Origin: a virus
Length of the DNA: 31,544 nucleotides
Virus record (IMG/VR): IMGVR_UViG_3300018019_000438
Reading direction: 5' to 3' (one strand)
Shown in pieces: positions 3,474 to 30,949 of the stretch (the first letter of the stretch is position 1; each line of letters begins with the position of its first letter). The translations under genes and the position numbers were made by a program. The notes beneath the pieces were generated by a model that worked only from the letters and a program-made list of their open reading frames with translations, was not told the origin of the DNA and searched no databases.

Positions 3474-3480
3474 AGTTTCC

Positions 3481-6513: not shown

Positions 6514-6521
6514 TGTTTATT

Positions 6522-7295
6522 TTACCATTCAGCAGGATCACGAATACCTGTAACAGAATCAACTCGTGCATTCATGTGATAGAATCGCCGCGCATTGGGT
6601 TCAGGGTAATAAATAGAGATTCGAAAAGTTTCCCATGGCGTGTTCGCCACTGGGCCATACATGCCTATCTCAATCATCTTGCGTTCGGTGGGTTGAAAAT
6701 GTCTTGATAGAATTTCACGATAGAAGTTTGCGGAGCCCATGTTCGGCCATTGCGAGTATTGTGTTGTCTTAATGAAAGTAGAATTACCCTGTGTCAAACG
6801 GCCATGCATGAGGTGTTCGTGCTCATGCCAAATCTTCTCCCATAGATAGAAACGAACCATGTTCACTTTATTGTATGTGATGACATCCGCGATGTCTTGC
6901 CATGCAAAAGCACAGTCTTCAGGATGAATGCTTCCGTCATCTCGGGGATTCTGAATCGTGGGCAGATATGTATCGTGTTCAATGAACAATACAAGAGGCG
7001 TGGTAATCTTTTTCAAAGTCTCTCGCAACATCCACGCCTGCTGAGTCGGCTGATCGAAAACAGCCATTTCTATACGACCATATTCGAGAAGTCTTTTGCT
7101 GAGTTGATTTTTGTATTCTTCGTACTGTGCTCTACGGTGTTCCACCTGCGGACGCACGCCATCTGCCATCACAATAATTCGGGATTCCGGCAAATGGAAT
7201 CGGATAGATTGAATGGTCTTCTCGATGATGGTGGTAGATGGATGTGAAGGCACGGGTGAAGTAGGAATCACACAAGTAACAATATCATCGATCAT
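6522..7295 (-). CDS. GT-A fold glycosyltransferase-like protein
   Basis: VTCVIPTSP..HP, IIVMADG, VLFIEHD; start at MIDDIV with GAGGAGAGG SD and ATGA overlap. Confidence 0.7.
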   Translation of the reverse strand: MIDDIVTCVIPTSPVPSHPSTTIIEKTIQSIRFHLPESRIIVMADGVRPQVEHRRAQYEEYKNQLSKRLLEYGRIEMAVFDQPTQQAWMLRETLKKITTPLVLFIEHDTYLPTIQNPRDDGSIHPEDCAFAWQDIADVITYNKVNMVRFYLWEKIWHEHEHLMHGRLTQGNSTFIKTTQYSQWPNMGSANFYREILSRHFQPTERKMIEIGMYGPVANTPWETFRISIYYPEPNARRFYHMNARVDSVTGIRDPAEW

Positions 7296-8242: not shown

Positions 8243-9200
8243 CAACCAACTCCATAAAAGTATTACGAAAGAACTCTCTGTTATCAAGAAAAGCTTGTCT
8301 GGCGGGAATACTTCTTGCCGCAATAGCGTCTGGACGATCCATGATGCTTACCGCTTTTCGGACAGAGTTGAGTACTGATTGGGGGGTTACATGATTCAGT
8401 TGAGCTAATGCCCGGGGCACACATTGGACAACAGGCATAAGGCATTCGCGCATGATGCCGCCATACGTGTTCATTGGCGGGGCGTCTGTGGTCAATACGA
8501 GCCCTCCGCATCCCAGCGCCTCATGGATCACATGCCCGAAGCCTTCATACATGGACGGGATCACATGAAACTGGTGACTGTTTATCAGTTGGATGATTTC
8601 ATCGTCCGTCGCGTGAGGGATGTGGGTAACATTGTTGTCAGGAAATGGATTTTTCGGATCAAACTGATTATTGAAAATCGGGGCACGGGCAATCACAGTC
8701 AGAGGTGGGAGCGGAGTCCCATGAACAATGCGGGCCATTCGCCATGCATCAAGAACGGCATTCGTGTTTTTGTATTCTGACTTACCTGCAACATGAAGAA
8801 ACTTTGATTCGCGCGGAATTTCAGGGTGGCAAATATCGCGGGCTTCGAAACTGGTATAGACACACTTGGCCGAATCAACCTTTCGGCACCAGATATCGTA
8901 ACAATCTTTTGTCTTGCAGATGATTTTGCTGAACTGCGGAAGGAAACGGTCATTAAGCGGATTCCACCATTCACTGTTTGGAACCAACCAATGCTCTCGG
9001 GAGAGAGAAAGAACGCGAGGAGAAACAACTTCAAAAGATATCGTGAGATCGCTGGAATGGAGTTCACAGGACATATCCGTATAGTGAACGCCCATCACAT
9101 AGTGGCCTTGAGACATAAGTAAATCGCGGAGCAGTAAATACTCTCTTTCGAGTCCCGCGCCACAAAGGCTGGTCACCACAGTGATATCTTTTTTCATCAT
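8232..9200 (-). CDS. GT-B (family 4-like) glycosyltransferase
   Basis: FLHVAGKSEYKNT, HVIPSMYEGFGHVIHEALGCG.LVLTTDAPPM. Confidence 0.85.
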   Translation of the reverse strand: MMKKDITVVTSLCGAGLEREYLLLRDLLMSQGHYVMGVHYTDMSCELHSSDLTISFEVVSPRVLSLSREHWLVPNSEWWNPLNDRFLPQFSKIICKTKDCYDIWCRKVDSAKCVYTSFEARDICHPEIPRESKFLHVAGKSEYKNTNAVLDAWRMARIVHGTPLPPLTVIARAPIFNNQFDPKNPFPDNNVTHIPHATDDEIIQLINSHQFHVIPSMYEGFGHVIHEALGCGGLVLTTDAPPMNTYGGIMRECLMPVVQCVPRALAQLNHVTPQSVLNSVRKAVSIMDRPDAIAARSIPARQAFLDNREFFRNTFMELVDAI

Positions 9201-11355: not shown

Positions 11356-14002
11356 TTAGGCTGTTGCTGTTTCCGACAAAATACGTCGGAAGGGCAGGAA
11401 CGTGCCAGCGGCGGCAGGACGGGGAGTTACGACGAACTTAACAGGATTGTTACCCCAAATAACTTGGGGGATTGTGCATTTCTGACAATCTCACACAGTT
11501 GGATTCCTGTGTGCTCGGACTATTGCATCACCCCGAAGGGTGTCTTCTCGCTTAGTCTCTCACGGTGCTTTCGCTTCCGCCTCGTTGCCATTTCAGGGTT
11601 CGAGTCAATTAGAGAAGATTCTCATTCGCGGATTTCGCCACGATGAACCAATTTTACTTAGTTGTAACTAACCGCTCCACCTATTTCTCCGCCCGGGTCA
11701 AATGCACTCGGTGCGAATTCATAGATGTTTGCCTTGAAGTTGGATTCGTCCTTAATTTGTTATTCTTCGCAATCCGTCAACTAGCTTCTCTAGCTCTTCT
11801 AAAGAAGCATCCCGTTTCAAAACGTTGGCGCGTTGCGAGATGACCATCACATTTTCTTTGATATACCCTTTTTCAGGAATTCTTCGGTCAAGAGCAGGTG
11901 AATCGTCTTTGTGACGACCTGTTGCCACTTGTAAACGAATTCCCAAAAGCGGACATACCTCTGGAATAGTGATGTCATCAGGTGTGAGATCGAAAGGAAG
12001 ACCAAGCATCTTGGCACGGTGACGAGCCCGGCGAACCATATAAATCTTGTAACGGTCCCAGTCGGAAGAAACGCCCTTCCACCATTCTTTTCGATAATCT
12101 GATTTCGCTTTACGTAGTTCTGCATTCTCGGCATACTTCTCCCGAGCATGCTCCAGTATCTTGGCCCGATTGCGGGCATAATACTGACGAGCGTATTGCC
12201 GCTCTTGTTCTACTGTTGCAAAACCCATGTCTCACCCCTAACTCTGCATGTTACCATGCAGAACGGACTATATCATAACACCCAAACATTATACCACAAA
12301 TTCTGTAGTTTGTCAAGATGTTTCTCGCGTGTAGTCTCTACGGACTCTCTGCTTGCGCAGGTTGCCTCGGGATTGGCCTGAGGGGTATCAGGTGTTTCCC
12401 CGATATAGCGAGATTTTACGTACCCTGTGCCGTAACTTCATGAAACGGCAATGGTTAAGGAACGTCTTCAAAACCACCAAGAGCGATAGCGAACATCGTC
12501 TCGTCAGCAGTAATGTAGGTTTCCCAAGAAGACTTACCAGATGCGGGCAAGTTGGCAACCAACGGAACGTTGGTGCTCATAACGAAATCGATACCCGCTA
12601 CCGGGATGATTTCATTATCTTCTGCGAGGCCAGCTTCAATCCACTTCTGTCCTTCACGGGTGTACTTCTCGGTGTCGAGAACGCCGTTGTGAGTCAGGTC
12701 GTTAGCAACATCGTTAAGTATATAAGGTAATTTTTGTTTAGGATTTCTGCGTCACCGCAGGATCACTCTGCATGTCACCATGCAGTTCAGACTCTATCTT
12801 CATTCCATAAAATGGAGTGTTAAGCGTATTAGTCGTTGGGGATTCTTCGATTAGATGGCCGTGGTTCAGTGCTGATATTTTTTCTGCCAGCACCGCGCGC
12901 TTTTCTTGATTCCAACCAGTTCCCAATCTAACCCACTCAAGAGCGAGTTTAGCTTGTTCCTGCTTGATAATCATATACGGGATAACACCTAACAAAAACT
13001 TCTCTTTGTTTTTGCTGCCAGACAATTTCCACTGATATAAAAGTTTGGCCCGCAAAGAAGAAAAACCTCGTCCTTTGCGGTTGCTAACATCAGTCTGAAA
13101 TCGTCCACCAAAGTTGTGCAGTAGCCATTTGATGAGACGGAAATCTGTATTGCTAATTTTGATTCCCAATTCAAATCGCTCACCCGAACATCCGTCTGAG
13201 CGTTGACCACGGACAACGTAGATGCTTCCTTCACCATCTAAAATTCCGGCCACATACGGCCATGCGTTGTGATCCATCGAAGTCTTTCCTCCGTCTTGTC
13301 TTATTTCACTAAACATTGTATCACATATCTGATACTTTGTCAAGCTAAATGTAAGATATTAACGGATATAGCTTAATTTTGCATGCACCCTTGTTGATGC
13401 ATGATTCCACGCATTCTTCCACCGGCAAAAGGTCGTCCGTTCTTTCCGCGAATTGTAGCCACAGCCGTGTTAAGAACCGCACGGGTCACGTAGCTACCAT
13501 CAGAAAGCTGAACGCTTGCAGTTGGGTCCGTAGAAACAGCAGCATCAAAGCCTTGCTGAATCAACGTATCAACCACGAGAGCGCCTCGATACCCAAGCAT
13601 TTCGCTGAGTTGTTCGAGAGGCTTTCCAATATCCACAGCAAGAGCAAAGTCAGAAACGTTGACGTAATCAACGTACTGACCTAGCACTGCTTGGATGCTC
13701 GCTTCAGTTGGCACGATTGGTGTGCCCACGGTGCCTTCTACGGCAGTCGGGGGCGGGGTATTGATGGGTCCACCACCAATATCAATCGCGTTTGCTGAAA
13801 CGTTCGCAGTAAACGGAGCCAAGTTATACGTGTAAATTTGTGTCGTGCGACCTGCGTTCTTCGGAATCTGACGTTCTGCGGTCAGCCCTTGGAACCCAAG
13901 ATGCGCGAACAAAGCACGTACTGCCAAACGATCATAAAAGACCGCTTGGGTGCTTGGCAAAGTTGAGCCGATAACAAATGAAGCCTGTGAATTACTAGGC
14001 AT
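11356..14002 (-). CDS. Major capsid protein (N4-gp56-like family), four exons: 13397-14002, 12458-12727, 11660-11750, 11356-11441; 350 aa after splicing
   Basis: Exon 1 (202 aa) has STQAVFYDR, IPKNAGRT.Q, QYVDYVNVSD, LGYRGALVVD and ends GIMH. Joining gives GIMH|PYILND...GGFEDVP|DESNFK...VSYN-F-KFVVTPRP...ETATA*, in frame (606+270+91+86 nt). Follows portal and scaffold genes. Confidence 0.85.
11442..11659 (-). mobile_element. Group I intron 3 of the capsid gene (218 nt, no ORF)
   Basis: P1 exon AACU pairs with GGUU (U.G at the splice site); P3 UCUUCUC/GAGAAGA; P7 GAGACUA/UAGUCC; P9 hairpins; ends in G (CCUG) and restores the capsid frame. Confidence 0.82.
11752..12228 (-). CDS. Intron-encoded HNH-like homing endonuclease
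   Basis: CPLLGIRL...SPALDRRIPEKGYIKENVMVISQRANVLK beta-beta-alpha-Me-type motif. Confidence 0.8.
   Translation of the reverse strand: MGFATVEQERQYARQYYARNRAKILEHAREKYAENAELRKAKSDYRKEWWKGVSSDWDRYKIYMVRRARHRAKMLGLPFDLTPDDITIPEVCPLLGIRLQVATGRHKDDSPALDRRIPEKGYIKENVMVISQRANVLKRDASLEELEKLVDGLRRITN
12288..12316 (-). promoter_or_regulatory. sigma70-type promoter inside intron 2
   Basis: TTGACA-17 nt-TATAAT with TGTGG before the -10. Confidence 0.8.
12738..13277 (-). CDS. Single-motif LAGLIDADG homing endonuclease
   Basis: YVAGILDGEGSI motif, ISNTD..LI.WL...FGG, YQWKLS, IPYMIIKQEQAKL; start at MDHNAW with GGAGG SD. Confidence 0.9.
   Translation of the reverse strand: MDHNAWPYVAGILDGEGSIYVVRGQRSDGCSGERFELGIKISNTDFRLIKWLLHNFGGRFQTDVSNRKGRGFSSLRAKLLYQWKLSGSKNKEKFLLGVIPYMIIKQEQAKLALEWVRLGTGWNQEKRAVLAEKISALNHGHLIEESPTTNTLNTPFYGMKIESELHGDMQSDPAVTQKS
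13315..13343 (-). promoter_or_regulatory. sigma70-type promoter inside intron 1
   Basis: TTGACA-17 nt-TACAAT with TGTGA before the -10. Confidence 0.7.
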
Positions 14003-15494: not shown

Positions 15495-15866
15495 CTACTG
15501 TGATACTTTGTGCAAAAGCGGTCTTGGTACGGTGGCGGCTTCGTTTATTGTGTTATTGCAATAGTCTAAAACTATCCGTAAGTCTCGATGATCTTGCCAC
15601 GCTTTATCTTTTTTATCCTTATCCGTGCAGGCAAGCAAAATATCGGCCTTCTGTTGAATTTTCTCCTTGAGATCGCTGATAAACAGCAAATGATCTGGAT
15701 TATTTCGTAGATGCCCTATCCTCCGCGCTTTGTCGTATATGGTTTGCGCGGTGTCGTAATTTTCTTGAGAAGTTTCATATTCCACGCGGGGAATGTCTCG
15801 CCGCAGCAACGGATCATCGTCGGACACATCTATAACGAATCCGTCTGTAGTCATAACTTGAGCCAT
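15495..15866 (-). CDS. hypothetical phage protein
   Basis: 123 aa ORF coupled to the portal stop, with GGAGG SD. Confidence 0.75.
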   Translation of the reverse strand: MAQVMTTDGFVIDVSDDDPLLRRDIPRVEYETSQENYDTAQTIYDKARRIGHLRNNPDHLLFISDLKEKIQQKADILLACTDKDKKDKAWQDHRDLRIVLDYCNNTINEAATVPRPLLHKVSQ

Positions 15867-17977
15867 TACGTTCCTCCGAGCCCTTCGAATCCTGATACAA
15901 TGCCCGGAGTTTCTTCGCGTTCCGAGGCTCGCTCCACAGCTTTCGTGGCGATAATTTGTCCGGTATCTGCCTGACCCTTGGCATCAATCTCAGTAAGTTT
16001 TTGCTGATGCTCTTGAGCAGACAGGTCCTTATTTTGGGCGTGCATCTGAGCCAAGCGCGCACGAGTTGCTTGGGCATCCAACATCTTCGGATTCATCTGC
16101 GCAGCACGTTGCTGATCTTGCTGAGTCATCGGGATAATGATGTCTTCTGGTGTCTTCCAACCTGAGACTTCTTCCCAACGACGGCTATACTCAACCCAGT
16201 TGACCTTCATTTGAGCAGATGCCAATCCTTGCTGAACAGCCGGGGCTTCCAGCATCTGACCAAGCAATGGCAAAGACTGGCCCATCTTCTGTTTAGCTGC
16301 GATGTTTGAACCGGCCAACAAAGTAAATTCAATATCGTCATTGTTGCACATGTCGAGCGTAAGATCGCCGTCATGATTCTGTTCCATGGATGTCCACAAC
16401 GTCTTTCCCACGATCTTGCGTATAACGGCAGGATCAAGCCACATCCTGTCCATTTTCAGGAAAGAATAGAGAAGCGGAAGCAAGCACTGGTCACACACTA
16501 TATCCACAAAACTTTGTACGCGGGCGCTTGATGCTCCTGCCACGGCTCCCGCACCTGTACCAGAGCGCATACCTGTACTGCGTACACCACCCGGCATAGC
16601 ACCTTGAATCAACAGTTCATTCGCGCCCGTTGTCTTCTCGGCATCAGCCATAAGAACTTCTTCTTCCTGATATGCTTCAGACAAAACGGGTTGCTTCTCA
16701 ATGGCTTTCAAACTGTCCATGTCATCGACTTTGAATACCGCGCCCGGGTATTGCTTGATGGGTTGAGCGGCAATATTGGAACCTTTGCGAGCCATCCACA
16801 TGTTTTGAAGGTTCATGTGAACGTCATCCAAACGCAGGTTACGCAAACCTTGAATGTGTGTCTGGATTCCACCAATACGACGTGGAATACCAAAGGCGTA
16901 GAATGTGCCCGGTAGATCGTCCCAATAACAAGAAACAAACGGGATGACGCCTAGCGGGTTGCCTTCATTACGAATTACTTTTTTGCGCTGCAGAACCACG
17001 ATGACGTGGTCCTTTGTCCAGTGCTCAAGAACTTCCAGCTTGTGTTCCAGCGGGTCTTCAGACTCATCAAGATAGCGCGGAAGCGGGCGATGCCCCTGTG
17101 TCGGGTACGCCGTGCCTTCATTCTCCAAACCTGAACTCGGTGCTTGTTCGGCAGGAGGTGCTGCCAAAGCCTTCAAAGTCTTCTCGTCGGGAATATCGTA
17201 ACCTTCAAAATCCCGAAGTTTGTTCAAATCGCGGATCGTCAAATAGTCACGGTACACAACAAAGTCAGCCGCACGAATATCAGGTTCACGAAGACCCGGA
17301 CTAACCAAAAGATGGTTGATTTCGATGCGCTTAAAGAATGGTTGACTAACGCGGTCGGTTACATCGTACTCTTCCAATTCATCGGATTCTGCAGTATGCA
17401 GAAAGGTAGACTTGCCGCCCGGAACGGAAGACGGAATTTCCTTCGGCATAGCCGCGCGCTTGTAGACCGTGCGCTTACGATCAAAGGTTTCCCATCCAAA
17501 CTTACCCAATCCCGTGCCAAAAATTTCAGCGTCTTTTACTATTAGACGCATTTGAGCTTTCACATTCGCCTGACGCAATTGATATGACAGAACCGATTCC
17601 CAACCACGCGATACTTGTCGAGGTGTGCCTTCAGTCGGCTGAATGGCAAACGGAGTCATCTCTGGAAAGATAGCGGGCATAGCCTGATCCAGAATTGCCC
17701 GAACGTGCTGAGCGATTAGAGGGAAAGAATTACTTGAGCGCGGAACCAAAGTATCGCGCCAATAAGTCTGACGAACCGGAGCTTCGTACAAGCTCTTGGC
17801 AACACGCCATTCGCTCATCCATAAACGCGCCATCACGAACTTCTCGGCTCGCTGGGTATCCTGAATGACTAAGGAAAGTGCAGATTCATCAGTTTTTACT
17901 GCACCACTATCCAAACTGAAATCATCTATTCTTTGATTTAGCGGGGCGGCGGTAGTATTTGGCTGGGGTAACTGCAT
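15866..17977 (-). CDS. Portal protein (P22/N4-like)
   Basis: 703 aa directly after the terminase; WMSEW, IFGTGLGKFGW, IEINHLLVSPG, GEGNP-like NPLGVIPFV..YW, Q-rich helical C-terminus. Confidence 0.85.
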   Translation of the reverse strand: MQLPQPNTTAAPLNQRIDDFSLDSGAVKTDESALSLVIQDTQRAEKFVMARLWMSEWRVAKSLYEAPVRQTYWRDTLVPRSSNSFPLIAQHVRAILDQAMPAIFPEMTPFAIQPTEGTPRQVSRGWESVLSYQLRQANVKAQMRLIVKDAEIFGTGLGKFGWETFDRKRTVYKRAAMPKEIPSSVPGGKSTFLHTAESDELEEYDVTDRVSQPFFKRIEINHLLVSPGLREPDIRAADFVVYRDYLTIRDLNKLRDFEGYDIPDEKTLKALAAPPAEQAPSSGLENEGTAYPTQGHRPLPRYLDESEDPLEHKLEVLEHWTKDHVIVVLQRKKVIRNEGNPLGVIPFVSCYWDDLPGTFYAFGIPRRIGGIQTHIQGLRNLRLDDVHMNLQNMWMARKGSNIAAQPIKQYPGAVFKVDDMDSLKAIEKQPVLSEAYQEEEVLMADAEKTTGANELLIQGAMPGGVRSTGMRSGTGAGAVAGASSARVQSFVDIVCDQCLLPLLYSFLKMDRMWLDPAVIRKIVGKTLWTSMEQNHDGDLTLDMCNNDDIEFTLLAGSNIAAKQKMGQSLPLLGQMLEAPAVQQGLASAQMKVNWVEYSRRWEEVSGWKTPEDIIIPMTQQDQQRAAQMNPKMLDAQATRARLAQMHAQNKDLSAQEHQQKLTEIDAKGQADTGQIIATKAVERASEREETPGIVSGFEGLGGT

Positions 17978-17986
17978 TCCGTTTCC

Positions 17987-19777
17987 TTATCCTCGATATA
18001 GACTTGCAACATTAGTTGAATTCACCGCATCAATATCCGTGCTTTCACCTTCTCCTGCATGCGAGTCCGGTGCTTCGGGCGGAAGTTCAGGCTCCCATGT
18101 GAGAATGGGCCCGCTAGGTTTCAAACTCTCAATGGTCTTAGGAAAGATCAGCGGGCGATAGTATTGCCAAGCCTGCGCGATGCAATCAGGAGCATCGTCT
18201 TTACGGCGCTTGGCATCAAGCGTCCATTTTTCAAATTGAGAGCGGACATCATCAATGAACCCGACATTGGAGTTGATAAAGACATGTCCGTCTTTCATGG
18301 CCGATGCCAATACCGCGATACGGACATTCTTTGCATTCAATTCGTTGTTCGGTAATTCCCATGTGATAGACTTGAACGGTTTATCGTTTGGCTTGGCAGT
18401 TCTTCGTACAGCTTCATTGATCTGATCTTCCAGCCAACGGACGCCCATGGCGTCTTCGATGCTATGGCCGACAATGGGCCCGAAATATTCCGCTGTCCGA
18501 TACAACTGAACGATGGCGTTTGAAACATCAGTACCATTGTTGTAGTGTGCCAGAACAACCTGCACAACCCACATTCTCATCGTGCTGTTCTGAAATACCG
18601 CGATAATGCCACAGGAATAATCTGATTCACTTTTCTTGCGTCGGCCAGTAAATGCAGATGCTAAATCCCAGTGAACAACAACTGAACGGTCATGCATGGG
18701 AATTTGCAGAAGATCGTTTGGAGATGTGATCTGTCTCTTCAGAATTGCTTCTGTGAATGACTTTGGCGTCTCGTCCAAAGACGCATCAAGCAAATATTGC
18801 TTGTAGAAATCAGAACGATTCCGGCGATAGCGTTTGAATAAGAAGTTTGCATTCAGCTTCTCAGGCCAAGTAAGATCGACATCATCAGGAGTAAGTTGGC
18901 CGTTCTTCTCTCTCTTTATCCGTTCTTCTATTTCTTTTGGCGTTCCATCTTTACGGAGCGTCCATGCGGGCAAAACAAAATAAGAAACTGTCTCACGTCC
19001 AGATTTCTCTTTGTCTTCCGCGCCTTTTCGACAGATGTAAGCGGGTAAATCTTCTTCATGCCATTTGGTGCCCAAAAACATCCGATATCCGCCCGGCTCA
19101 ACTAGCTCGTCAGTATCATCGTATGTGCCGTGGGTTTTTTCGCAATTCTCTAAATTGGACGAATTGATTTCGTTTGTCGCGTCGTCCAAAAACACAAGTT
19201 CATAGTGGCCTCCAGCTTTTACAGACTCAAAGCTGGCAAGGGAGATGGTTGGGTCTCGAAGGTCTAGTTCAGGGTTTCGCTTTGGAGTTGTGAACTCTTC
19301 AAGTTTGATATCTGATTCTTCAATCGCCCATTCAGGAAACAAATGCCGAATAACTTGATTGGAAAAGAATGGCTTTCGAGCCATTGCAAGGATGCTCTTA
19401 GCTTTATCAATTTTTCCTGACATGATGAGAATACGAATGTCAGGAGAACACAAAATAACTTGAGTTAGAAAGGCCGCTCCAATTGTAGATTTGAGCATGC
19501 CTCGGGAAGCCAATACTACAAACTCATCCCGTTCATCCCATTCAGAAGAATCTTTGTGAGGATCAGGCTGAAGGAACGAGTCAATAATTTTTCCATGAAC
19601 CTTTTCCAGAAGTGTTGGAAACTTCTTGGAGTTTGCAGGACGCAAAACGCAGTTAACCAGAAAACGCAAATCAGTCTGGATTCGAATTTTCACGTTGTCT
19701 TGTTCTTCCTTAGACAACTTCTGCACATCGGGCAGTGTCAATCGGAAGTTCAAGTCACCGAGATTTGAGATGCCCAC
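17987..19777 (-). CDS. terL: Terminase large subunit
   Basis: Walker A-like LASRGMLKST, Walker B LVFLDD, LGTKWHEED, nuclease motifs HWDLAS and KDDAPD. Confidence 0.9.
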   Translation of the reverse strand: MGISNLGDLNFRLTLPDVQKLSKEEQDNVKIRIQTDLRFLVNCVLRPANSKKFPTLLEKVHGKIIDSFLQPDPHKDSSEWDERDEFVVLASRGMLKSTIGAAFLTQVILCSPDIRILIMSGKIDKAKSILAMARKPFFSNQVIRHLFPEWAIEESDIKLEEFTTPKRNPELDLRDPTISLASFESVKAGGHYELVFLDDATNEINSSNLENCEKTHGTYDDTDELVEPGGYRMFLGTKWHEEDLPAYICRKGAEDKEKSGRETVSYFVLPAWTLRKDGTPKEIEERIKREKNGQLTPDDVDLTWPEKLNANFLFKRYRRNRSDFYKQYLLDASLDETPKSFTEAILKRQITSPNDLLQIPMHDRSVVVHWDLASAFTGRRKKSESDYSCGIIAVFQNSTMRMWVVQVVLAHYNNGTDVSNAIVQLYRTAEYFGPIVGHSIEDAMGVRWLEDQINEAVRRTAKPNDKPFKSITWELPNNELNAKNVRIAVLASAMKDGHVFINSNVGFIDDVRSQFEKWTLDAKRRKDDAPDCIAQAWQYYRPLIFPKTIESLKPSGPILTWEPELPPEAPDSHAGEGESTDIDAVNSTNVASLYRG

Positions 19778-20554: not shown

Positions 20555-20989
20555 TTATTTACCGTTCTTTCTAAGATATTCTACTGCGGCCAATAAAATA
20601 CTCTCATTATCTTTTGCATGACCCAACAAGAAATTACACGTAGAACAAAGAATTCCACGAATAACAATCTCGCCTGTTGTAACTTCTGCAAAATGATCGT
20701 GGTCAACACACCATTTTTTGGCATCTGGAATGCCGCAAATAGCACAACACCTGTTTTGAGATGCTAAAATGCGCTCTTTTTCTTCCAAACTTATGCCATA
20801 TAATTTCTTATACGCATATCGTCTTTGATAGAGTGGGTCTTTCATAAGGCGGTCCTTATGATACCGCTTGTCGTAAACTTTCTTCTCTTCGACATGCGCC
20901 GCCTTCCACTCTTTAGACTTTTTAGAAGCATACACAGGATGAGCAGATTGCCACTTTTTATTATAAATGGCCTTCTCTTCCTTTGTCAT
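20555..20989 (-). CDS. Endonuclease VII-family homing endonuclease (free-standing)
   Basis: YGISLEE...QNRCCAICG...VDHDH...IRGILCSTCN..LG.AKD...AAVEYL. Confidence 0.88.
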   Translation of the reverse strand: MTKEEKAIYNKKWQSAHPVYASKKSKEWKAAHVEEKKVYDKRYHKDRLMKDPLYQRRYAYKKLYGISLEEKERILASQNRCCAICGIPDAKKWCVDHDHFAEVTTGEIVIRGILCSTCNFLLGHAKDNESILLAAVEYLRKNGK

Positions 20990-24685: not shown

Positions 24686-24850
24686 TTATTTTAGCGCGCG
24701 AGAAACTTTCGCCCCGCGACCGCAGTTATTGCACTCCCAGCCATGCAGGCCGTGAATCGTGCCCTTCTCACCTTTTGATTTTCCAGTGGGGGTTTTTGTT
24801 ACAGAACCTTGGCAGGCAGCACATGAATAGTTGTATCGCGTTGAATTCAT
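24686..24850 (-). CDS. small zinc-ribbon protein
   Basis: CAAC...CNNC, 54 aa from MNSTRY (ATGA overlap). Confidence 0.6.
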   Translation of the reverse strand: MNSTRYNYSCAACQGSVTKTPTGKSKGEKGTIHGLHGWECNNCGRGAKVSRALK

Positions 24851-25275
24851 TTCTTCTCCCCGAGATATTTTTCCAAATATGCTGCGGCCAATTTGCAAGT
24901 AACAGGATCATCCTGTAGAAGACCAAGAGCCATGTTGCATTTTCTATGAACTAATCCTCGATTCATTTCGGTAACATGGGAGTGATCTACAACCGCCTCC
25001 ATCCCTTTATCTTCCGAGAAAGGTTTCAAACATACTCCACAACAATTATTTTGAGCCGCGAGCATCGCAACAAACACTTCTGCGCTTATACCATATTTCC
25101 ACATTCTATAACGATCTGAATGATACCGTTTCTTTTCAGGACCGCCCATCAATCTTGCATATTTTAATCGGCCACAAACTCTACAAGAACGACGACGATG
25201 TTTATCCCAGCAAGTATTCTCAGGAGTAAATTCGTGCCCATGTTTACAATGAGTCTTCGTCCACTTATTTGCCAT
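24847..25275 (-). CDS. Endonuclease VII-family homing endonuclease with N-terminal THCKHGH..T..NT motif
   Basis: KYGIS...QNNCCGVC...VVDHSH...RGLVHRKCNMALG..DD; start moved to MANKW. Confidence 0.85.
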   Translation of the reverse strand: MANKWTKTHCKHGHEFTPENTCWDKHRRRSCRVCGRLKYARLMGGPEKKRYHSDRYRMWKYGISAEVFVAMLAAQNNCCGVCLKPFSEDKGMEAVVDHSHVTEMNRGLVHRKCNMALGLLQDDPVTCKLAAAYLEKYLGEKK

Positions 25276-26131
25276 TGCCGACTCGGGCAACATACTCACA
25301 GCAGGCGTTCGGATCAACCTTAATTCGGCCATCGGAAGTGCGCGGCTGCTTTGACTTCTTCAACATGTCATCCTGTCCGCAGGAATTATCCACAGATCGA
25401 AAAAATTCACAGTTAGCACAAGAGAATGGCCCCTTGTTCGCAGCGGGCTCGTATCCAGTTCCGGTCTCCCCTTGAACCGCAGATATGTCAATTTGTATGG
25501 AGTGATCGGATTCGGCTTCAGGATTAGACTTGAAAATCGGAATCGTGGTATACTCCGCGATCAGTGCAATGCCACCGGAGCTAATAATATCCGTCGTCTC
25601 GCCCAAATACTCATCGCTGTTCGCGCCGGTCTGCAGGTTCCACCAGTACATCACATTTGAAACGTGGGCAACAACCAAAACTTCGGGGTCTTCCGTGCTC
25701 TTTTCTTTTTCAATTATCTTTAGAAGGTCTTCGGCAAACTCGTGCTGACGATATTCAAACTCATTGATCGTTTCGCCATTTGGAAATCTTTTGTTCTTGT
25801 TGTCAAGAAATGGCTGAATAGGGTGATCTGCTTTGGATTGCCCTTTGAAATCGCCAACATTCAAAGGCAGAAGGCGATCATCAATTTCAATGAACTCGAC
25901 TCCAAGATACTCCGCGATAATAGCAGCAGTCAAGACTGCGCGTTGTAGAGGGGATGATATGATCTTTGAAAACGGCTGCTTCAGCTTCTGAAGAAACTTG
26001 CCTTCTTCATGAGCAGATCGAATACCATCTTCGTTGAGTTGGGCGTCAGGACCATCAGACCATCCGCGATAACGTCCCGATTCATTTAGGACAGTCTGAC
26101 CATGTCTTGCGATAAAAAAGAGACTGCGCAA
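25265..26131 (-). CDS. Histidine phosphatase (phosphoglycerate mutase family) with C-terminal Cys-rich domain
   Basis: IARHGQT, ISSPLQRA, FPNGET, VVAHVS; C-terminal CANC...C...CC; TTG start with AAGGA SD. Confidence 0.85.
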   Translation of the reverse strand: MRSLFFIARHGQTVLNESGRYRGWSDGPDAQLNEDGIRSAHEEGKFLQKLKQPFSKIISSPLQRAVLTAAIIAEYLGVEFIEIDDRLLPLNVGDFKGQSKADHPIQPFLDNKNKRFPNGETINEFEYRQHEFAEDLLKIIEKEKSTEDPEVLVVAHVSNVMYWWNLQTGANSDEYLGETTDIISSGGIALIAEYTTIPIFKSNPEAESDHSIQIDISAVQGETGTGYEPAANKGPFSCANCEFFRSVDNSCGQDDMLKKSKQPRTSDGRIKVDPNACCEYVARVGNGK

Positions 26132-26268: not shown

Positions 26269-26343
26269 TGGCAGGCAGTGAGAGATTCGAACTCCCAAGT
26301 TCCGTTTTGGAGACGGACAGTTTGCCGTTGAGCTTAACCGCCT
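26269..26343 (-). tRNA. tRNA-Trp(CCA)
   Basis: Cloverleaf, loop CTCCAAA, encoded CCA. Confidence 0.92.
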
Positions 26344-26464
26344 GTAGAAATTGTTCGCCGTGTTGCTCCCGGGTTCAATCGGGCCTCGGCGTGAAGCGCG
26401 GATTCCCTAGGACTACGCATCCCCTTGGCTTCCACTTATAGGGTGCGTACCGCTTGTACAAAAT

Positions 26465-26538
26465 TGGTGGACCGGCAGGGAATCAAACCCTGTTTTTTCG
26501 GGTGCAAACCGAACGTATTCTCAGCCTACTCCCAGCCC
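26465..26538 (-). tRNA. tRNA-Ala(TGC)
   Basis: Loop TTTGCAC, G3:U70 identity pair, CCA. Confidence 0.9.
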
Positions 26539-26542
26539 AATA

Positions 26543-26617
26543 TGGTTGCCTGTCTACGATTCGAACGTAGATTCACGGCTTCAGAGGCCGCTGTCCTTCC
26601 GGTTAAACGAACGGGCA
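26543..26617 (-). tRNA. tRNA-Gln(CTG)
   Basis: Loop CTCTGAA, U1:A72, CCA. Confidence 0.9.
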
Positions 26618-26693
26618 ATAGAAAATTGGCTGTCCCGATAGGGGCTTTACCCCACACTCGTTAGTCGCGGCATCAGCGAAGGCCAGTAGAAAA

Positions 26694-26785
26694 TGGAGGA
26701 AGGCCAGAGAATCGAACTCTGTCACCGGGTCTTAGCCGGTGGTACTGTTTTCAAGACAGTGAGGCACCATTGCCGACTGCCCTCC
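26694..26785 (-). tRNA. tRNA-Ser(TGA)
   Basis: Loop CTTGAAA, long variable arm, CCA; U73 and A8 are atypical. Confidence 0.85.
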
Positions 26786-26793
26786 ATCAAAAT

Positions 26794-27003
26794 TTATTCT
26801 TCGTCTACAATTATTACTGGATGCGGAAGATGAATCGGTTTTCCCAACAAGGCACCATGGGGTCCGACTTTCTGAAATAAATCGGCAGACCCGTCCTTGT
26901 ACACACACAAATGCCATCCTCGCGCTCTTTTGTAATTCAAAACAGGATAAACGTAAGTACCATCTTCCTGTTCTACAATCTCAATACAATGATTAGCAAT
27001 CAT
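26794..27003 (-). CDS. small hypothetical protein within the tRNA array
   Basis: 69 aa ORF with AAGGAG SD, fills the gap between two tRNAs. Confidence 0.65.
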   Translation of the reverse strand: MIANHCIEIVEQEDGTYVYPVLNYKRARGWHLCVYKDGSADLFQKVGPHGALLGKPIHLPHPVIIVDEE

Positions 27004-27053
27004 TTTACTCTCCTTTGCTCATCGAGCATGATATTCTAAGGCCCTACAAAAAA

Positions 27054-27145
27054 TGGTTGTCGATGTCGGTATTGAGCCGACCCGTTGCGCTAATCTGGCG
27101 CTTTCCGAAGTTTATAAGTCTTCGCTGCACCCTGTGCTATCGACA
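27054..27145 (-). tRNA. Atypical tRNA with UAU anticodon (Ile-type), long variable arm and 3-nt D-loop
   Basis: TGTCGAT/ATCGACA acceptor, GCAC-AGG-GTGC D arm, loop CTTATAA, GCGC/GCGC variable arm, T-loop CTCAATA, ACCA end. Confidence 0.7.
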
Positions 27146-27194
27146 GAAACTTTTCTTGTTCTACCAGTGAATCCGCGCGGTCTATCCGGCATTG

Positions 27195-27488
27195 TCAGTT
27201 TGCAGTATTATACTCTCCAATTTTTACTCGGTGTATAGTATTGCACCGCAGATGGGAAAATGCAATGTTATTCAAATCCCAAAACAACTCAGCAGAGCGG
27301 CCTTCCCATGGCTCTTTGTGCTCGATGCTCAACTCATCAACAGTTACTATTTCTTTGGCACACTTAAAGCATATATTTTCTTCAAGTCTGCAAAGCAAAT
27401 GAAAAAGAATAATCTTGCGAAGTCTTCCCGCAGCCGTACCAGGAGGCATACCTAATTGTGCTACTACTCTTTGTTTTCTTGCATTCAT
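27195..27488 (-). CDS. HNH endonuclease
   Basis: CFKC...LSIEHKEPW...WDLNNIAFSHLRCN; start moved to MNARKQ because the ORF-track start lies inside a tRNA. Confidence 0.8.
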   Translation of the reverse strand: MNARKQRVVAQLGMPPGTAAGRLRKIILFHLLCRLEENICFKCAKEIVTVDELSIEHKEPWEGRSAELFWDLNNIAFSHLRCNTIHRVKIGEYNTAN

Positions 27489-27521
27489 TATCGTAGACCT
27501 TTGGTCGTTGATTTTGAAAAA

Positions 27522-27595
27522 TGGTTTCCTTGGATGGATTCGAACCACCATAGCGCGGTAATCGGCCACGCGTATTGCCATTATACGACAAGGAA
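27522..27595 (-). tRNA. Atypical tRNA, anticodon GAT (Ile) with C33 and U37
   Basis: Perfect acceptor TTCCTTG/CAAGGAA, canonical D and T arms, loop CCGATTA, CCA. Confidence 0.75.
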
Positions 27596-27616
27596 ATTGA
27601 AAATTGTGATGCCTTT

Positions 27617-27873
27617 ACGGTGCCCGTAGCCCGGCTTCTGTTCTCACTTGCGTAAGTAGAAGTCATTCGTCTAAGCAGCAACCCGGCAGTCTTTATCGGT
27701 GGTCAGCCTCTGCCCTATTTGCCTTGCATCGGTGTGGAGTCGTTTCGGACAAGTGGATAGAGCAAGGCTTGCCGAACTCTTACCCGTGCGCTTTCGCGCC
27801 CCGCAGCTTCCACGGCACCTTGACCAGATGGCCGGAACTTCCTCGGCTTTCGCCGCGACTTCTTGTTCACCGT
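27617..27873 (-). ncRNA. rnpB: RNase P RNA (compact bacterial type A-like, no P18, reduced specificity domain)
   Basis: P1 ACGGUG/CACCGU, P2 GAAGUC/GACUUC, P3 GNRA hairpin, CR-I GAGGAAGUUCCGGC pairing with CR-V ACAGAAGCCGGGCU (P4), P5 CAUC/GAUG, P6 UGGUCA/UGACCA, GCAAGGCAAAUAG, L15 GGU, UAGACGAAUGA, P19 CUUAC-GCAA-GUGAG. Confidence 0.88.
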
Positions 27874-27879
27874 TAAGAA

Positions 27880-27954
27880 TGGAGGCTCTACACGGATTCA
27901 AACCGTGATAGCTGGTTTCGAAGACCAGTGCCCTGTTCGTTGGACGATAGAGCC
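27880..27954 (-). tRNA. tRNA-Arg(TCG)
   Basis: Loop CTTCGAA, cloverleaf, CCA. Confidence 0.9.
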
Positions 27955-28033
27955 ATAAAAAGAGGCGACGTTCGGTTCGCCAATCACACCACTGACTGTA
28001 TATACAGTCGCACAGGTGTCGTGCTTTGCAAAA

Positions 28034-28108
28034 TGGAGCGCCGTGAGGGAATTGAACCCCCGTCTGAACGTTCGTAGCGTTCTGTCCTGTCCGTTGAACG
28101 AACAGCGC
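28034..28108 (-). tRNA. tRNA-Arg(ACG)
   Basis: Loop CTACGAA, cloverleaf, CCA. Confidence 0.9.
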
Positions 28109-28109
28109 A

Positions 28110-28183
28110 TGGTAGACCGTGACGGATTCGAACCGCCATGACTTGTGTGTAGGACAAGCATTCTGCCGTTGAATTAACAGTCT
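28110..28183 (-). tRNA. tRNA-Val(TAC), C33
   Basis: Loop CCTACAC, cloverleaf, CCA. Confidence 0.85.
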
Positions 28184-28189
28184 ATAGAT

Positions 28190-28263
28190 TGGTGTGCCGC
28201 GAGTGAATCGAACACTCGTTCGTTGATTAAGAGTCAACTAGTCTGCCACTGACTTAGCAGCAC
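28190..28263 (-). tRNA. tRNA-Lys(CTT)
   Basis: Loop CTCTTAA, cloverleaf, CCA. Confidence 0.92.
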
Positions 28264-28268
28264 AAAAA

Positions 28269-28374
28269 TGGACGGCCTGACTGGAGTCGAACCAGCCTTA
28301 GTTCGTTTAGAAGACGAACGCCTATATCGGTCCCGTTTAGGAAACGGGTGCCTGTTCCGCTCGGCCACAGACCG
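28269..28374 (-). tRNA. 106-nt tRNA-Arg with two tandem anticodon arms (CCT and TCT)
   Basis: One acceptor, one D arm, one T arm, two 5-bp/7-nt hairpins CCCGT-TTCCTAA-ACGGG and TTCGT-CTTCTAA-ACGAA, CCA. Confidence 0.85.
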
Positions 28375-28383
28375 TTTGAAAAT

Positions 28384-28469
28384 TGGCGGATGAGGAGGGA
28401 TTCGAACTCTCACAACCTTTCGGTTGCCAGTTTAGCAAACTGGTGCGGCTACCGTTTCGCCACCCATCC
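28384..28469 (-). tRNA. tRNA-Ser(GCT)
   Basis: Loop TTGCTAA, long variable arm, G73, CCA. Confidence 0.92.
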
Positions 28470-28477
28470 GTTGAACT

Positions 28478-28553
28478 TGGTAGGGAAGGAGAGATTCAAA
28501 CTCTCGTCACTTGGCTTGAAGGGCCAGTATCTTCATCACTAGACCACTTCCCC
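28478..28553 (-). tRNA. tRNA-Glu(TTC), C33
   Basis: Loop CCTTCAA, CCA; 5' end overlaps the last codons of the HNH ORF. Confidence 0.85.
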
Positions 28554-28952
28554 GTTATTTTTCTGTCTGATATACGTGCGATTCGCATGACAGTTTGCAC
28601 AAACAACTTCGCACTTAGAAATCTCTTCTAAAATTCTCTTTATGCCAAAGCGCCATAACATTTGACCAAGATTCCCGGTTTTGATTCCACGCACGTGGTC
28701 AAATTGCATTATCCAGTATGGGTAAGAAATTCCACAATCCATACAAGGTTTGTTTTTGGCATCGCGAACTATTTCTACCCGTGCCTGTTTTCGAAGTTTT
28801 AGTCGGGCAATGATGCTGTCTTTGTTTTTCAGATAACAAACACGATTATATCCTTGTTGCTTTTGGTACTCGTTTTTACACTCGTGACAATAGGACCCGC
28901 CATGAGTGTCATTCTTTCCGTTATCTTTTCCGCACTTCGGGCACATCTTCAT
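28539..28952 (-). CDS. HNH endonuclease with N-terminal Zn finger
   Basis: CPKC..CHEC, KPCMDCG..YP.WIMQFDHVRG.K, EEISKCEVVCANCHANRT. Confidence 0.88.
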   Translation of the reverse strand: MKMCPKCGKDNGKNDTHGGSYCHECKNEYQKQQGYNRVCYLKNKDSIIARLKLRKQARVEIVRDAKNKPCMDCGISYPYWIMQFDHVRGIKTGNLGQMLWRFGIKRILEEISKCEVVCANCHANRTYIRQKNNGEVV

Positions 28953-29050
28953 TTTTCTCTCCACTATAGAGATGTCGGGGGTGATAGTGGCACCCCCAAC
29001 CTAGCGGTAATGGTCGCCACCCTTCGAAGGATCACTCCGATTCAGATTAC

Positions 29051-29079
29051 ATTCTACCACAAACTTGGCCGCTTGTCAA
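29051..29079 (-). promoter_or_regulatory. internal sigma70-type promoter of the tRNA array
   Basis: TTGACA-17 nt-TAGAAT with TGTGG before the -10. Confidence 0.8.
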
Positions 29080-29087
29080 CTGAAAAC

Positions 29088-29161
29088 TGGGGGCCGCAAG
29101 GAGAATCGAACTCCTGCGAGCAAGTTGAGAACCTGCCGTTCTTCCACTAAACTATGTGGCC
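29088..29161 (-). tRNA. tRNA-Glu(CTC)
   Basis: Loop TTCTCAA, CCA; C73 is atypical. Confidence 0.85.
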
Positions 29162-29269
29162 TCAAAATGAATTCGGAAACATTATGTGGAGTTTGCAAGC
29201 ACCACAACTTTGATGCTGTGTCCGCTCTCTTGGTTGCACCCAAAAGGACACGCTGCATGTTCCGAAAAT

Positions 29270-29344
29270 TGGTGGGCCACCAAGGACTTGGACCTTGACT
29301 CGTCGGCTTAAAAGGCCGCTGTGCTACCTTAACACTAGTAGCCC
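29270..29344 (-). tRNA. tRNA-Lys(TTT)
   Basis: Loop CTTTTAA, CCA; T-loop TCCAAGT (C55). Confidence 0.88.
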
Positions 29345-29349
29345 AAAAT

Positions 29350-29436
29350 TGGTCGCCAAGGTGGGGATCGGACCCACACGCTCTTTCGAGCCAATCGTTT
29401 TAAGTGATTGCTGTCTGCCAGTTCCATCACTTGGCG
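29350..29436 (-). tRNA. tRNA-Leu(TAA)
   Basis: Loop CTTAAAA, long variable arm GCTC-GAAA-GAGC, CCA; T-loop TCCGATC. Confidence 0.88.
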
Positions 29437-29440
29437 AAAT

Positions 29441-29518
29441 TGGTGCAAGCAGTGGGAGTCGAACCCACAAGACTCTAGGTTTGAGCTAGAGATGTCTGCC
29501 AAATTGCATCACACTTGC
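29441..29518 (-). tRNA. tRNA-Leu(CAA) with short variable region
   Basis: Loop CTCAAAC, Leu-type D arm, only about 5 nt of variable region, CCA. Confidence 0.85.
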
Positions 29519-29519
29519 A

Positions 29520-29595
29520 TGGTTGCCTGAAAAGGATTCGAACCTTTATCGGATGGATTCAAAGTCCACCATGTTCCCAGTTACACCATCGGGCA
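29520..29595 (-). tRNA. tRNA-Gln(TTG)
   Basis: Loop CTTTGAA, U1:A72, CCA. Confidence 0.9.
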
Positions 29596-29603
29596 ATTGA
29601 AAA

Positions 29604-29677
29604 TGGTCCCGTTCCGTGGAATTAAACCACGACTACCTGTGCTTCAAACAGGGGTCATATCGTTAGACCAAAACGGG
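29604..29677 (-). tRNA. tRNA-Phe(GAA)
   Basis: Loop TTGAAGC, cloverleaf, CCA. Confidence 0.87.
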
Positions 29678-29683
29678 ATAAAT

Positions 29684-29758
29684 TGGGGTGCAATCTCAGA
29701 TTCAAACTGAGCCTACCCGGTTCACAGCCGAGCGTGCTATCACTACACCAAAAGCACC
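29684..29758 (-). tRNA. tRNA-His(GTG)
   Basis: Loop CTGTGAA, encoded G-1:C73, CCA. Confidence 0.9.
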
Positions 29759-29884
29759 ATTGAATCCAAATTCAAGACGGCAGGAATGATTGCTTCCTTT
29801 TCGTGGGGCTGGCAACCGACCCGGATTATTCATCTTACCCTTTTGGGAGTAGATACGATGCCGGGCTCGCTTGAAAAATCAATA

Positions 29885-29961
29885 TGGCGAGGCTAGCGGG
29901 ATTCGAACCCGCGAAGTCTTCCGTGACGGGGAAGCGCGATAGGCCGCTACGCGATAACCTC
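29885..29961 (-). tRNA. tRNA-Asp(GTC), C33
   Basis: Loop CCGTCAC, G73, CCA. Confidence 0.88.
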
Positions 29962-29967
29962 ATAAAA

Positions 29968-30055
29968 TGGCTGGGGCAACAGGATTCGAACCTGTAATGA
30001 GCTTGCGCTCTGGATGGGTAACAGCCATCTGCTGTGCCGGTTGAGCCACACCCCA
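29968..30055 (-). tRNA. tRNA-Asn(GTT) with long variable arm
   Basis: Loop CTGTTAC, variable arm GAGC-GCAA-GCTC, G73, CCA. Confidence 0.87.
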
Positions 30056-30064
30056 GTAGAAAAT

Positions 30065-30143
30065 TGGTAGCGGAAATCGGATTTGAACCGATGATATCAT
30101 GGTTATGAGCCATGCGTTTTAGACCGGACTAAACTATTCCGCA
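30065..30143 (-). tRNA. tRNA-Met(CAT), initiator-like
   Basis: Loop CTCATAA, 1:72 mismatch, fMet-like T arm ATCGGTTCAAATCCGAT; only two G-C pairs at the anticodon stem tip, so elongator Met or Ile2 identity is not excluded. Confidence 0.85.
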
Positions 30144-30321
30144 TCAGACTGTATTCATCCAAGAGAACGTTTGCAACCAGTCATCCTTCTCTTGGACGCC
30201 CTTTCGGGTATTAGGTATCTCAGCATCAGACTTGCCGTGGCCACGACTTGGATGACTCGTCTGTTGCTGAAACGGCCATTTGCGAGGTGCAAAGCATCTC
30301 GTCCTGACCTAAGTATCAAAA

Positions 30322-30409
30322 TGGTGGATCGGGCACGACTCGAACGTGCGAAGCTCCGAAGGAGCAACTGGTTTACAGCCAGTGGCAATTGCCGCTATGC
30401 GACCAATCC
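30322..30409 (-). tRNA. tRNA-Tyr(GTA)
   Basis: Loop CTGTAAA, long variable arm with UUCG loop, CCA. Confidence 0.92.
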
Positions 30410-30415
30410 ATAAAA

Positions 30416-30489
30416 TGGAGGCGTGAGTTGGGATCGAACCAACGTTGGTTGTTTTGCAGACAACTGACTTGCCGCTTGTCGATCACGCC
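30416..30489 (-). tRNA. tRNA-Cys(GCA)
   Basis: Loop CTGCAAA, U73, CCA. Confidence 0.92.
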
Positions 30490-30595
30490 AAAATCAGGGC
30501 TGCGCTCTCTATAGTGAGCTATCAACGCCGAAGCGCCTAGCGGGTTTACACCGCCCCTCAAGCCGATTTGCTTCCACAGAATGGAAGACTTAATA

Positions 30596-30670
30596 TGGAG
30601 CCCTAGCAAGGTTTCGAACCTTGGACGCCCGCTTACAAGGCGGGAGTTTTGCCAACTAAACTACTCGGGC
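30596..30670 (-). tRNA. tRNA-Thr(TGT)
   Basis: Loop CTTGTAA, CCA. Confidence 0.92.
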
Positions 30671-30671
30671 A

Positions 30672-30745
30672 TGGAGCTAGATGTTGGAATTGAACCAACC
30701 TTTAACGCTTACCAAGCGTTCGTTCTCCCGATGAACTAATTCAGC
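30672..30745 (-). tRNA. tRNA-Thr(GGT)
   Basis: Loop TTGGTAA, CCA. Confidence 0.9.
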
Positions 30746-30823
30746 TTTGAAACTTTGCGGTTCGCTTGGAACCGCTGGTGGCTCTTCACTCCGCTTGCGC
30801 GGCGAAGCATAGCTCGCCAATTT

Positions 30824-30898
30824 TGGAGGTCAACTTGGGATTCGAACCCAAATAACCGCTTTACGAAAGCGGCGTAATGCCGGTTATACGAATCGACC
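30824..30898 (-). tRNA. tRNA-Thr(CGT)
   Basis: Loop TTCGTAA, CCA. Confidence 0.9.
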
Positions 30899-30920: not shown

Positions 30921-30949
30921 ATTCTACCACAGATGGGTCCCTTTGTCAA
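30921..30949 (-). promoter_or_regulatory. sigma70-type promoter heading the tRNA array
   Basis: TTGACA-17 nt-TAGAAT with TGTGG before the -10, about 20 nt upstream of the first tRNA. Confidence 0.85.

Follow-up and report, generated by a model that had tools for sequence, protein, structure and literature searches.

The RNA of RNase P is viewed as a chromosomal housekeeping ribozyme of cells and organelles. Bacterial type-A RNAs, such as E. coli M1 RNA (rnpB; Rfam family RNaseP_bact_a, RF00010), are typically 340–420 nt long, and in the type-A enzyme the GGU of L15 pairs with the RCCA of the tRNA while J5/15 reads U(-1) (PMC4919922). It is not uncommon for bacterial RNase P RNAs to have lost P13, P14 and P18, and reduced forms have been found in the Candidate Phyla Radiation (CPR) (Lui et al., PMC8172020). 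The RNase P RNA of Pyrobaculum is active with almost no S-domain (PMC4919922, PMC7191817). A survey of huge phages lists tRNAs and tmRNAs and mentions neither RNase P nor ribozymes (PMC7162821), and the P finder survey does not mention phages. A full-text literature search, outside which most subscription journals lie, found no publication on a phage or viral gene for RNase P RNA.

The locus described here lies in an uncultured soil or peat phage (IMG/VR record IMGVR_UViG_3300018019_000438), of which the whole analysed stretch, hereafter the window, comprises 31,544 nt. An RNase P RNA-like gene sits between two of the 26 phage tRNA genes (Table 1). Judged by comparison with nine relatives, and by sequence alone, the element is a genuine RNase P RNA of reduced type-A form, maintained by selection in a phage tRNA operon. 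A first-pass annotation had proposed a covariance-model check. In a permissive Rfam scan of 27560-27920, RNaseP_bact_a (RF00010) matched 27612-27874 (-) over model positions 1-367 with 74.7 bits (E 4.8e-23), outscoring the rest of the RNase P clan, and all other Rfam matches in this interval had E > 0.2. Type B, archaeal and other Rfam families were rejected, as the class-A model is the best within the clan and the remaining matches are noise. The ends placed by the first-pass annotation, 27617 and 27873, are the outer base pairs of the 6-bp P1. The score of the window copy is below the RF00010 gathering score of 100 bits, so routine annotation misses it, as standard phage annotation misses such RNAs because they score below the Rfam threshold. 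Three relatives pass the gathering score, namely L127 (113.6 bits), L129 (105 bits) and L149 (102.3 bits), and the window copy is thus tied to the RF00010 family via clear homologs. The minimum free energy (MFE) fold of the whole element as a single strand has a z of -0.5 and mispairs the S-domain with P15. At the Rfam gathering thresholds, only tRNAs and one group I intron are reported in the window; the intron (12244-12453 (-), RF00028, 64.1 bits, above its gathering score) lies between ORFs 11752-12228 and 12738-13343 and presumably interrupts a phage gene.

On the basis of the Rfam alignment and a hand-drawn structure checked by script, the catalytic core of the window copy is complete and comprises P1–P5, P4 with its bulged U, P6, P15–P16, L15 GGU, J5/15, J18/2 and J2/4. 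P1 (ACGGUG/CACCGU) is extendable by 4 bp past an A.A mismatch (duplexfold, -14.3 kcal/mol), P2 is AGAAGUC/GACUUCU, P5 is CAUC/GAUG, P15 is GGC/GCU and P16 is GGCAG/CUGCC. J5/15 GCAA and J18/2 UAGACGAAUG align to consensus uppercase positions of RF00010. The first-pass annotation had described catalytic-domain helices in RNase P order inside a phage tRNA array, and homology, phage genes and array position now establish this. It had also described a change in P4 from CCGGG/CCCGG to CCGGC/GCCGG, a 6-bp P6 pseudoknot, a retained L15 GGU and a missing P18, all of which were borne out: P4, AGU[U]CCGGC/GCCGGGCU, retains the bulged U and ends in a C-G pair, the reverse of the orientation in the consensus CCGGG/CCCGG, P6 (UGGUCA/UGACCA) covaries in the relatives, L15 reads CGGGUU, and the 24 model positions of P18 are replaced by 0. 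P13 and P14 are absent in all ten copies. J2/4 spans 16 nt in the window as against 4 nt in eight relatives, and only L149 has an insert analogous to the hairpin found there (CCAC-GAAA-GUGG).

Table 1. Features of the RNase P RNA-like gene and of its surroundings in the window
Feature	Position	Strand	Remarks
Whole RNase P RNA-like gene, ~263 nt	27612..27877	-	Core P1 27873-27617; RF00010 match
P1 (27873-27868) and P2 (27863-27857), 5' strands	27857..27873	-	Partners 27622-27617 and 27664-27658
Minimal P3 hairpin, CGGC-GAAA-GCCG	27844..27855	-	12 nt vs 16-89 nt in relatives
J3/4 GAGGAA and P4 5' strand with bulged U, AGU[U]CCGGC	27831..27844	-	P4 pairs in 80/80 cells
P5 (CAUC) and P6 pseudoknot (UGGUCA), 5' strands	27821..27830	-	Partners 27730-27727 and 27705-27700
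Conserved proximal S-domain: P7 5' strand, P8 hairpin, P9 hairpin with GAAA loop	27788..27819	-	
Remodelled distal S-domain, P10-P12 equivalent	27736..27785	-	Two hairpins favoured in window copy
P7 and P5 3' strands, J5/15 CAA, P15, J15/16 AAAUAG, P16, loop with P6 3' strand, L15	27677..27734	-	P6 3' strand 27705-27700; L15 GGGUU 27684-27680
J18/2 UAGACGAAUG, running straight into P2 3' strand	27658..27673	-	P15 to J18/2 without P18 between
Extra GNRA-capped hairpin in J2/4, CUUAC-GCAA-GUGAG	27643..27656	-	Absent from first-pass annotation
J2/4 ACAGAA, P4 3' strand GCCGGGCU (27635-27628), P1 3' strand (27622-27617)	27617..27641	-	
Large terminase	17987-19777	-	Marks window as phage DNA
Portal or adaptor protein	15866-17977	-	Marks window as phage DNA
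tRNA array, 26 genes, holds the putative ribozyme	26269..30898	-	All 26 encode CCA
tRNA-Arg(UCG), upstream neighbour	27880..27954	-	Its CCA ends 5 nt ahead of the element; same neighbour in L127
tRNA-Ile(GAU), downstream neighbour	27522..27595	-	Begins 16 nt past Rfam match; same neighbour in L127 and L129
Near-consensus sigma-70-type promoter ahead of array	30921..30949	-	TTGACA-17-TAGAAT, 11/12 matches, TG before second hexamer
Second sigma-70-type promoter, same hexamers, TG upstream of second	29079-29051	-	11/12; within array, before HNH ORF

The element shares with bacterial type-A RNase P RNA the helix order P1–P9 and P15–P17, the P4 and P6 pseudoknots, the bulged U of P4, conserved J3/4, J5/15, J15/16, J18/2 and J2/4, the L15 GGU for the 3' RCCA and the GNRA loop on P9. 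It thereby has the P4 with bulged U flanked by J3/4 and J2/4 (CR-I and CR-V) that is expected of RF00010 members as well as the combination that discriminates type A from type B, which is the P15-P16-P17 arm with P6 and L15 GGU. However, at 263 nt it is shorter than the typical bacterial type A, it has no P13, P14 or P18, its P10–P12 region is reduced and in the window copy remodelled, the terminal pair of P4 is C-G, P3 has only 4 bp, J2/4 carries an extra hairpin, and the gene is located in a phage tRNA array and not on a chromosome. The absence of P18 is no bar to RF00010 membership, because this helix is not universal in bacteria (PMC8172020). In size class and in detection below the Rfam cut-off, the element resembles the reduced RNAs of Mycoplasma fermentans and the CPR (PMC8172020). 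These are single essential chromosomal copies, whereas the phage RNA is an accessory viral copy and has retained the UGG/GGU motif, which is gone from some CPR forms. Archaeal type-A RNAs likewise have no P13/P14 and no P18 (PMC4919922, PMC7191817); however, archaeal forms use four or five proteins, and it is the bacterial class-A model that scores best on the phage element. Unlike the minimal type T/P RNA of Pyrobaculum, the element keeps conserved P7, P8, P9, P6, P16 and L15 GGU. Among phage translation RNAs, it is similar to tRNA arrays and the tmRNA of huge phages (PMC7162821) in that host-like translation RNAs are clustered, but in contrast to tRNA and tmRNA cargo it would be an enzyme that processes tRNAs.

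Neither the element nor its 11.5 kb context has a blastn match in INPHARED (GenBank phage records), and a 14-mer scan of IMG/VR returned 118 chance matches, none of them like the element. A composite motif of the 3' half, consisting of J15/16, then J18/2, then the P4 3' strand with the lineage-specific G, had no match in IMG/VR and none in 185,579 prokaryote species represented by one genome each (GTDB). The same motif matched eight JGI metagenome contigs, each with an RF00010 match in a tRNA array and on the tRNA strand; two of these contigs are the same phage (~99% identity), and the other six are diverged relatives that score 72-114 bits with RF00010, two of them above the gathering score. 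With a 5'-half motif, three IMG/VR phages were retrieved, each with one RF00010 match (91.6-102.3 bits) in a tRNA array. The survey of phage tRNA arrays for homologs that the first-pass annotation had suggested has thus yielded nine further distinct relatives on metagenome and IMG/VR phage contigs, three of them above the Rfam threshold. All ten copies are placed within tRNA arrays on the tRNA strand, and flanking tRNAs are conserved among copies (Arg–P–Ile or Cys–P–Lys). One relative genome that carries the RNA, G005, is complete, with 105,066 bp and terminal repeats; its terminase, 31% identical to that of the window, is encoded on the strand of the RNA at a distance of ~11 kb, a layout as in the window. 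On the contigs available, the putative ribozyme gene is accessory and dispensable for some related phages, because the closest TerL relatives (L120–L122, 57% identity) have 25-29 tRNAs and no RNase P-like RNA detectable with Rfam or an element-based model. At least 20 public contigs, drawn from several samples, carry the window phage itself with 99.9% identity. Its RNA is identical in seven of the assemblies read, and the variant L145 has a G-C to G.U change in P3 at 27846; because these strains are 99.9% identical, they are uninformative about selection on the window copy. No relatives of the neighbouring protein (25265-26131) were found in IMG/VR.

Across the ten distinct sequences (~60% column identity), the fold is conserved by compensatory change. 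By pair counting on an Infernal alignment, 98.2% of cells are paired as against 79.9 ± 1.3% in shuffles, both-sided changes are seen at 23 of 46 pairs where 13.2 ± 2.0 are expected from shuffles, and the covariation score is 0.475 as against 0.140. None of 500 shuffles reached the observed pairing, both-sided-change or covariation values, and slid controls pair at 32-38%. As the Infernal alignment is fitted to our own nested structure, this pair count is biased upward. In a second count, ten helices were taken at fixed offsets from invariant anchors in the ten sequences; 512 of 529 cells (96.8%) are standard pairs, compared to 29-35% with the 3' partner shifted by one, and both-sided (compensatory) changes occur at 29 of 53 positions. 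The P4 and P6 pseudoknots, which lie outside the covariance model of the alignment, are nevertheless paired in 100% and 95% of cells and show compensatory changes. P1, P2, P3 and P12 were left out of the alignment-based count because MAFFT mis-registers P1/P5/P6 and a single-sequence covariance model misaligns P1–P3 (long-P3 subgroup). P2, counted via anchors, is paired in all 70 cells, and 6 of its 7 positions show both-sided changes. The second pair of P4, a helix paired in every cell (Table 1), is G-C, C-G or A-U, and the 5' strand of P6 (58/60 cells paired) is UGGUCA, UCGACA, UCAACA or UAGACA, each with a matching partner. Pairing is similarly kept in P7 (40/40), P8 (50/50), P9 (39/40), P15 (39/39) and P16 (49/50). 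CGGGU in L15 and the bulged U of P4 are invariant in the ten sequences, L9 is GNRA in all ten, and GAGGAA, J5/15 CAA, the J18/2 core and ACAGAA are conserved. J5/15 and J18/2 are invariant in seven- and eight-sequence alignments, except for the fifth base of J18/2, which is C, U or G over all ten. The J15/16 motif is AAAUAGG in nine sequences; L149 (IMG/VR record G006; element at 1499-1803 (-)) has AAGUAGG in J15/16 and CCCC/GGGG in P15. At the level of these alignments, the predicted fold is shown to be under purifying selection.

The distal S-domain is where the window copy departs from its family. The first-pass annotation had described a specificity domain cut down to P7–P9 plus two non-standard hairpins, which holds for the window copy but not for the relatives, as these keep a reduced P10-P11-P12. 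Folded in isolation, the distal S-domain of six relatives forms P10, a P11 that contains a bulged G, and a P12 hairpin, with CAUUCRAG left single-stranded, whereas in the window copy the homologous fold reaches only -0.7 kcal/mol compared to -7.8 kcal/mol for the two-hairpin fold and -12.7 kcal/mol for the MFE fold. On L127, the Rfam model pairs P10 and P11, and 89 model positions (P12–P14) are replaced by 30 nt. The CAUUCRAG-type junction is kept with small variations in nine relatives and lost in the window copy, P11 is weak there, and the window copy falls short of the S-domain expected of RF00010 members, in which P10-P12 and the J11/12-J12/13 modules (CR-II, CR-III) serve to read the tRNA elbow. 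The window copy thus has the most reduced and most degenerate S-domain of the ten-member family, and since the junction motif is lost and P11 is weak, its recognition of the tRNA elbow may be impaired. Variant T-loops in 7 of the 26 window tRNAs and the lack of a G at +1 in 9 of 26 lend modest support to the idea that elbow recognition is less important for the tRNAs of this phage, and support only modestly the earlier suggestion that the ribozyme is tuned to atypical tRNAs. The P3 of the window copy is the shortest of the family; a short P3 together with a GNRA-capped J2/4 hairpin is found only in the window and L149, and this combination may, by inference only, represent a structural trade.

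The spacers of the tRNA array are short (three of 1 nt, many of 4-9 nt), and N(-1) is U in 17 of the 26 window tRNAs. The putative ribozyme and its tRNA substrates almost certainly derive from the same precursor, because 5 nt separate the tRNA-Arg CCA from the start of the element and 16 nt separate its end from tRNA-Ile; transcription itself is inferred. That CCA is encoded by all 26 tRNAs fits the retained L15 GGU. We consider it likely that the phage gene specifies a reduced type-A RNase P RNA that is a functional catalytic subunit, is co-transcribed with its substrates and uses host RnpA. There is no biochemical or expression evidence, and transcription, release, catalysis and the protein partner are all inferred. 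According to this proposal, host RNA polymerase would transcribe the element within the polycistronic tRNA array, and the element would be released by 3' trimming of tRNA-Arg and an RNase P cut at the 5' end of tRNA-Ile. It would then fold into a complete catalytic domain and, with host RnpA as the most likely cofactor, remove 5' leaders from pre-tRNAs, phage pre-tRNAs being bound mainly via L15 GGU with the encoded RCCA and via a J5/15 adenosine that reads U(-1). The predicted outcome is added or secured RNase P capacity for an array with genes often 1-9 nt apart. As a more tentative extension, which we hold to be possible but unlikely, a long-kept RNase P ribozyme of a phage lineage may be shedding its tRNA-elbow-reading domain. 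The window copy would in that case be an enzyme minimised by nature, choosing its substrates largely through RCCA pairing and contacts with the leader, and would seize host RnpA during infection, so that the packed, partly non-canonical phage tRNAs mature ahead of those of the host or independently of them.

How the RNA obtains a protein, and whether it needs one, bears directly on the alternatives. The statement of the first-pass annotation that the window has no RnpA-like ORF stands, as no RnpA domain (PF00825) was found in ten small window ORFs or in ten ORFs of the 7.4 kb past its right end; a six-frame search of the complete relative genome G005 gave no PF00825 match with an E of 1 or less, and 10 of 10 bacterial control genomes were positive. 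A 141-aa ORF inside the array was considered as cofactor and rejected, since it has an HNH-type CxxC...CANCH signature, and it has no Pfam hit. Host RnpA as cofactor is the simplest reading and most likely, the partner being inferred, because RnpA proteins are interchangeable between species (PMC4919922). The presence of the RNA without RnpA in G005 agrees both with use of the host protein and with protein-free action. The lack of RnpA in the window, in the 7.4 kb beyond and in G005 could also mean that the ribozyme is active independently of host RnpA, either protein-free or with an unrecognised phage protein, and gives the phage autonomous tRNA maturation; many small nearby ORFs are of unknown function, and the extra GNRA hairpins (L9, P3 and the J2/4 insert) could stabilise the fold. 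However, reduced bacterial RNase P RNAs (deletion variants) generally need protein more, not less, which speaks against such independence. The diversity of RnpA sequences makes the missed-homolog argument cut both ways, since a divergent phage RnpA could be missed; a divergent phage cofactor cannot be excluded. Independence from host RnpA is on balance unlikely.

The same absence of a phage RnpA, which leaves the host protein as the only visible partner, and the remodelled distal S-domain of the window copy would suit a non-catalytic mimic that cleaves nothing itself but, by binding pre-tRNAs or the RnpA of the host, redirects or blocks tRNA maturation in the host to the benefit of the phage. 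However, the bulged U of P4, the J2/4 and J18/2 adenosines, L15 GGU and J5/15 are invariant in 10/10 copies, and these elements serve chemistry and substrate docking and not protein binding; moreover, a decoy would starve the phage's own 26 tRNAs of processing, and we regard this reading as very unlikely. An Rfam score below the threshold, three missing peripheral helices and the lack of the gene in some related phages, on the contigs available, could instead point to a decaying remnant of a captured host rnpB fragment without present function. This is contradicted by the covariation, as compensatory changes have preserved all core helices in ten diverged copies (~60% column identity), and by the conserved placement in the array. 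The P4 signature argues in the same direction. None of the 185,579 cellular species genomes has J18/2 followed by ACAGAAGCCGGG, that is, a copy with the P4 variant of this lineage, and a looser genome scan gave 3 chance pattern matches, none an RNase P RNA. Because the variant beside J18/2 is absent from these species, the P4 flip is, as far as the genomes searched can tell, a mark of the phage lineage and does not indicate a recent capture from a cell. With this lineage-specific signature missing from ~186,000 cellular genomes, we give a decaying remnant hardly any credence, and a catalytic subunit working with host RnpA remains the reading we prefer.

A maintained RNase P RNA borne by a virus would mean that the translation parts carried by phages include a catalytic RNA, and would demonstrate that 5' maturation of tRNAs can be limiting in phage infection. 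The family would also provide a natural series of minimised type-A ribozymes of ~263-360 nt, which bears on the dispensability of S-domain parts, P3 and P18.

Several further features of the array and the window were observed. The 26 window tRNAs serve 18 amino acids; tRNAs for Gly and Pro are missing, whereas the arrays of L120, L127 and L132 have them. The tRNA-Asn (anticodon GUU; 88 nt, 29968-30055 (-)) has a long class-II-type variable arm, which is unusual for tRNA-Asn, and could be charged with a different amino acid; this long-arm 88-nt type is also present at L122 1059-1147 and L150 256-343, and the Asn tRNA of L127 is of normal length. Two HNH-type endonuclease ORFs lie within the tRNA array, at 28539-28964 (-) and at 27195-27581 (-), the latter directly downstream of the tRNA-Ile that follows the putative ribozyme. 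There are two endonuclease VII genes (20555-20989 and 24847-25332), and the HNH and endonuclease VII genes of the window are also on the minus strand. A sugar-modification gene cluster at 3-9200 (-) encodes an aminotransferase, a dTDP-4-dehydrorhamnose 3,5-epimerase and a glycosyltransferase.
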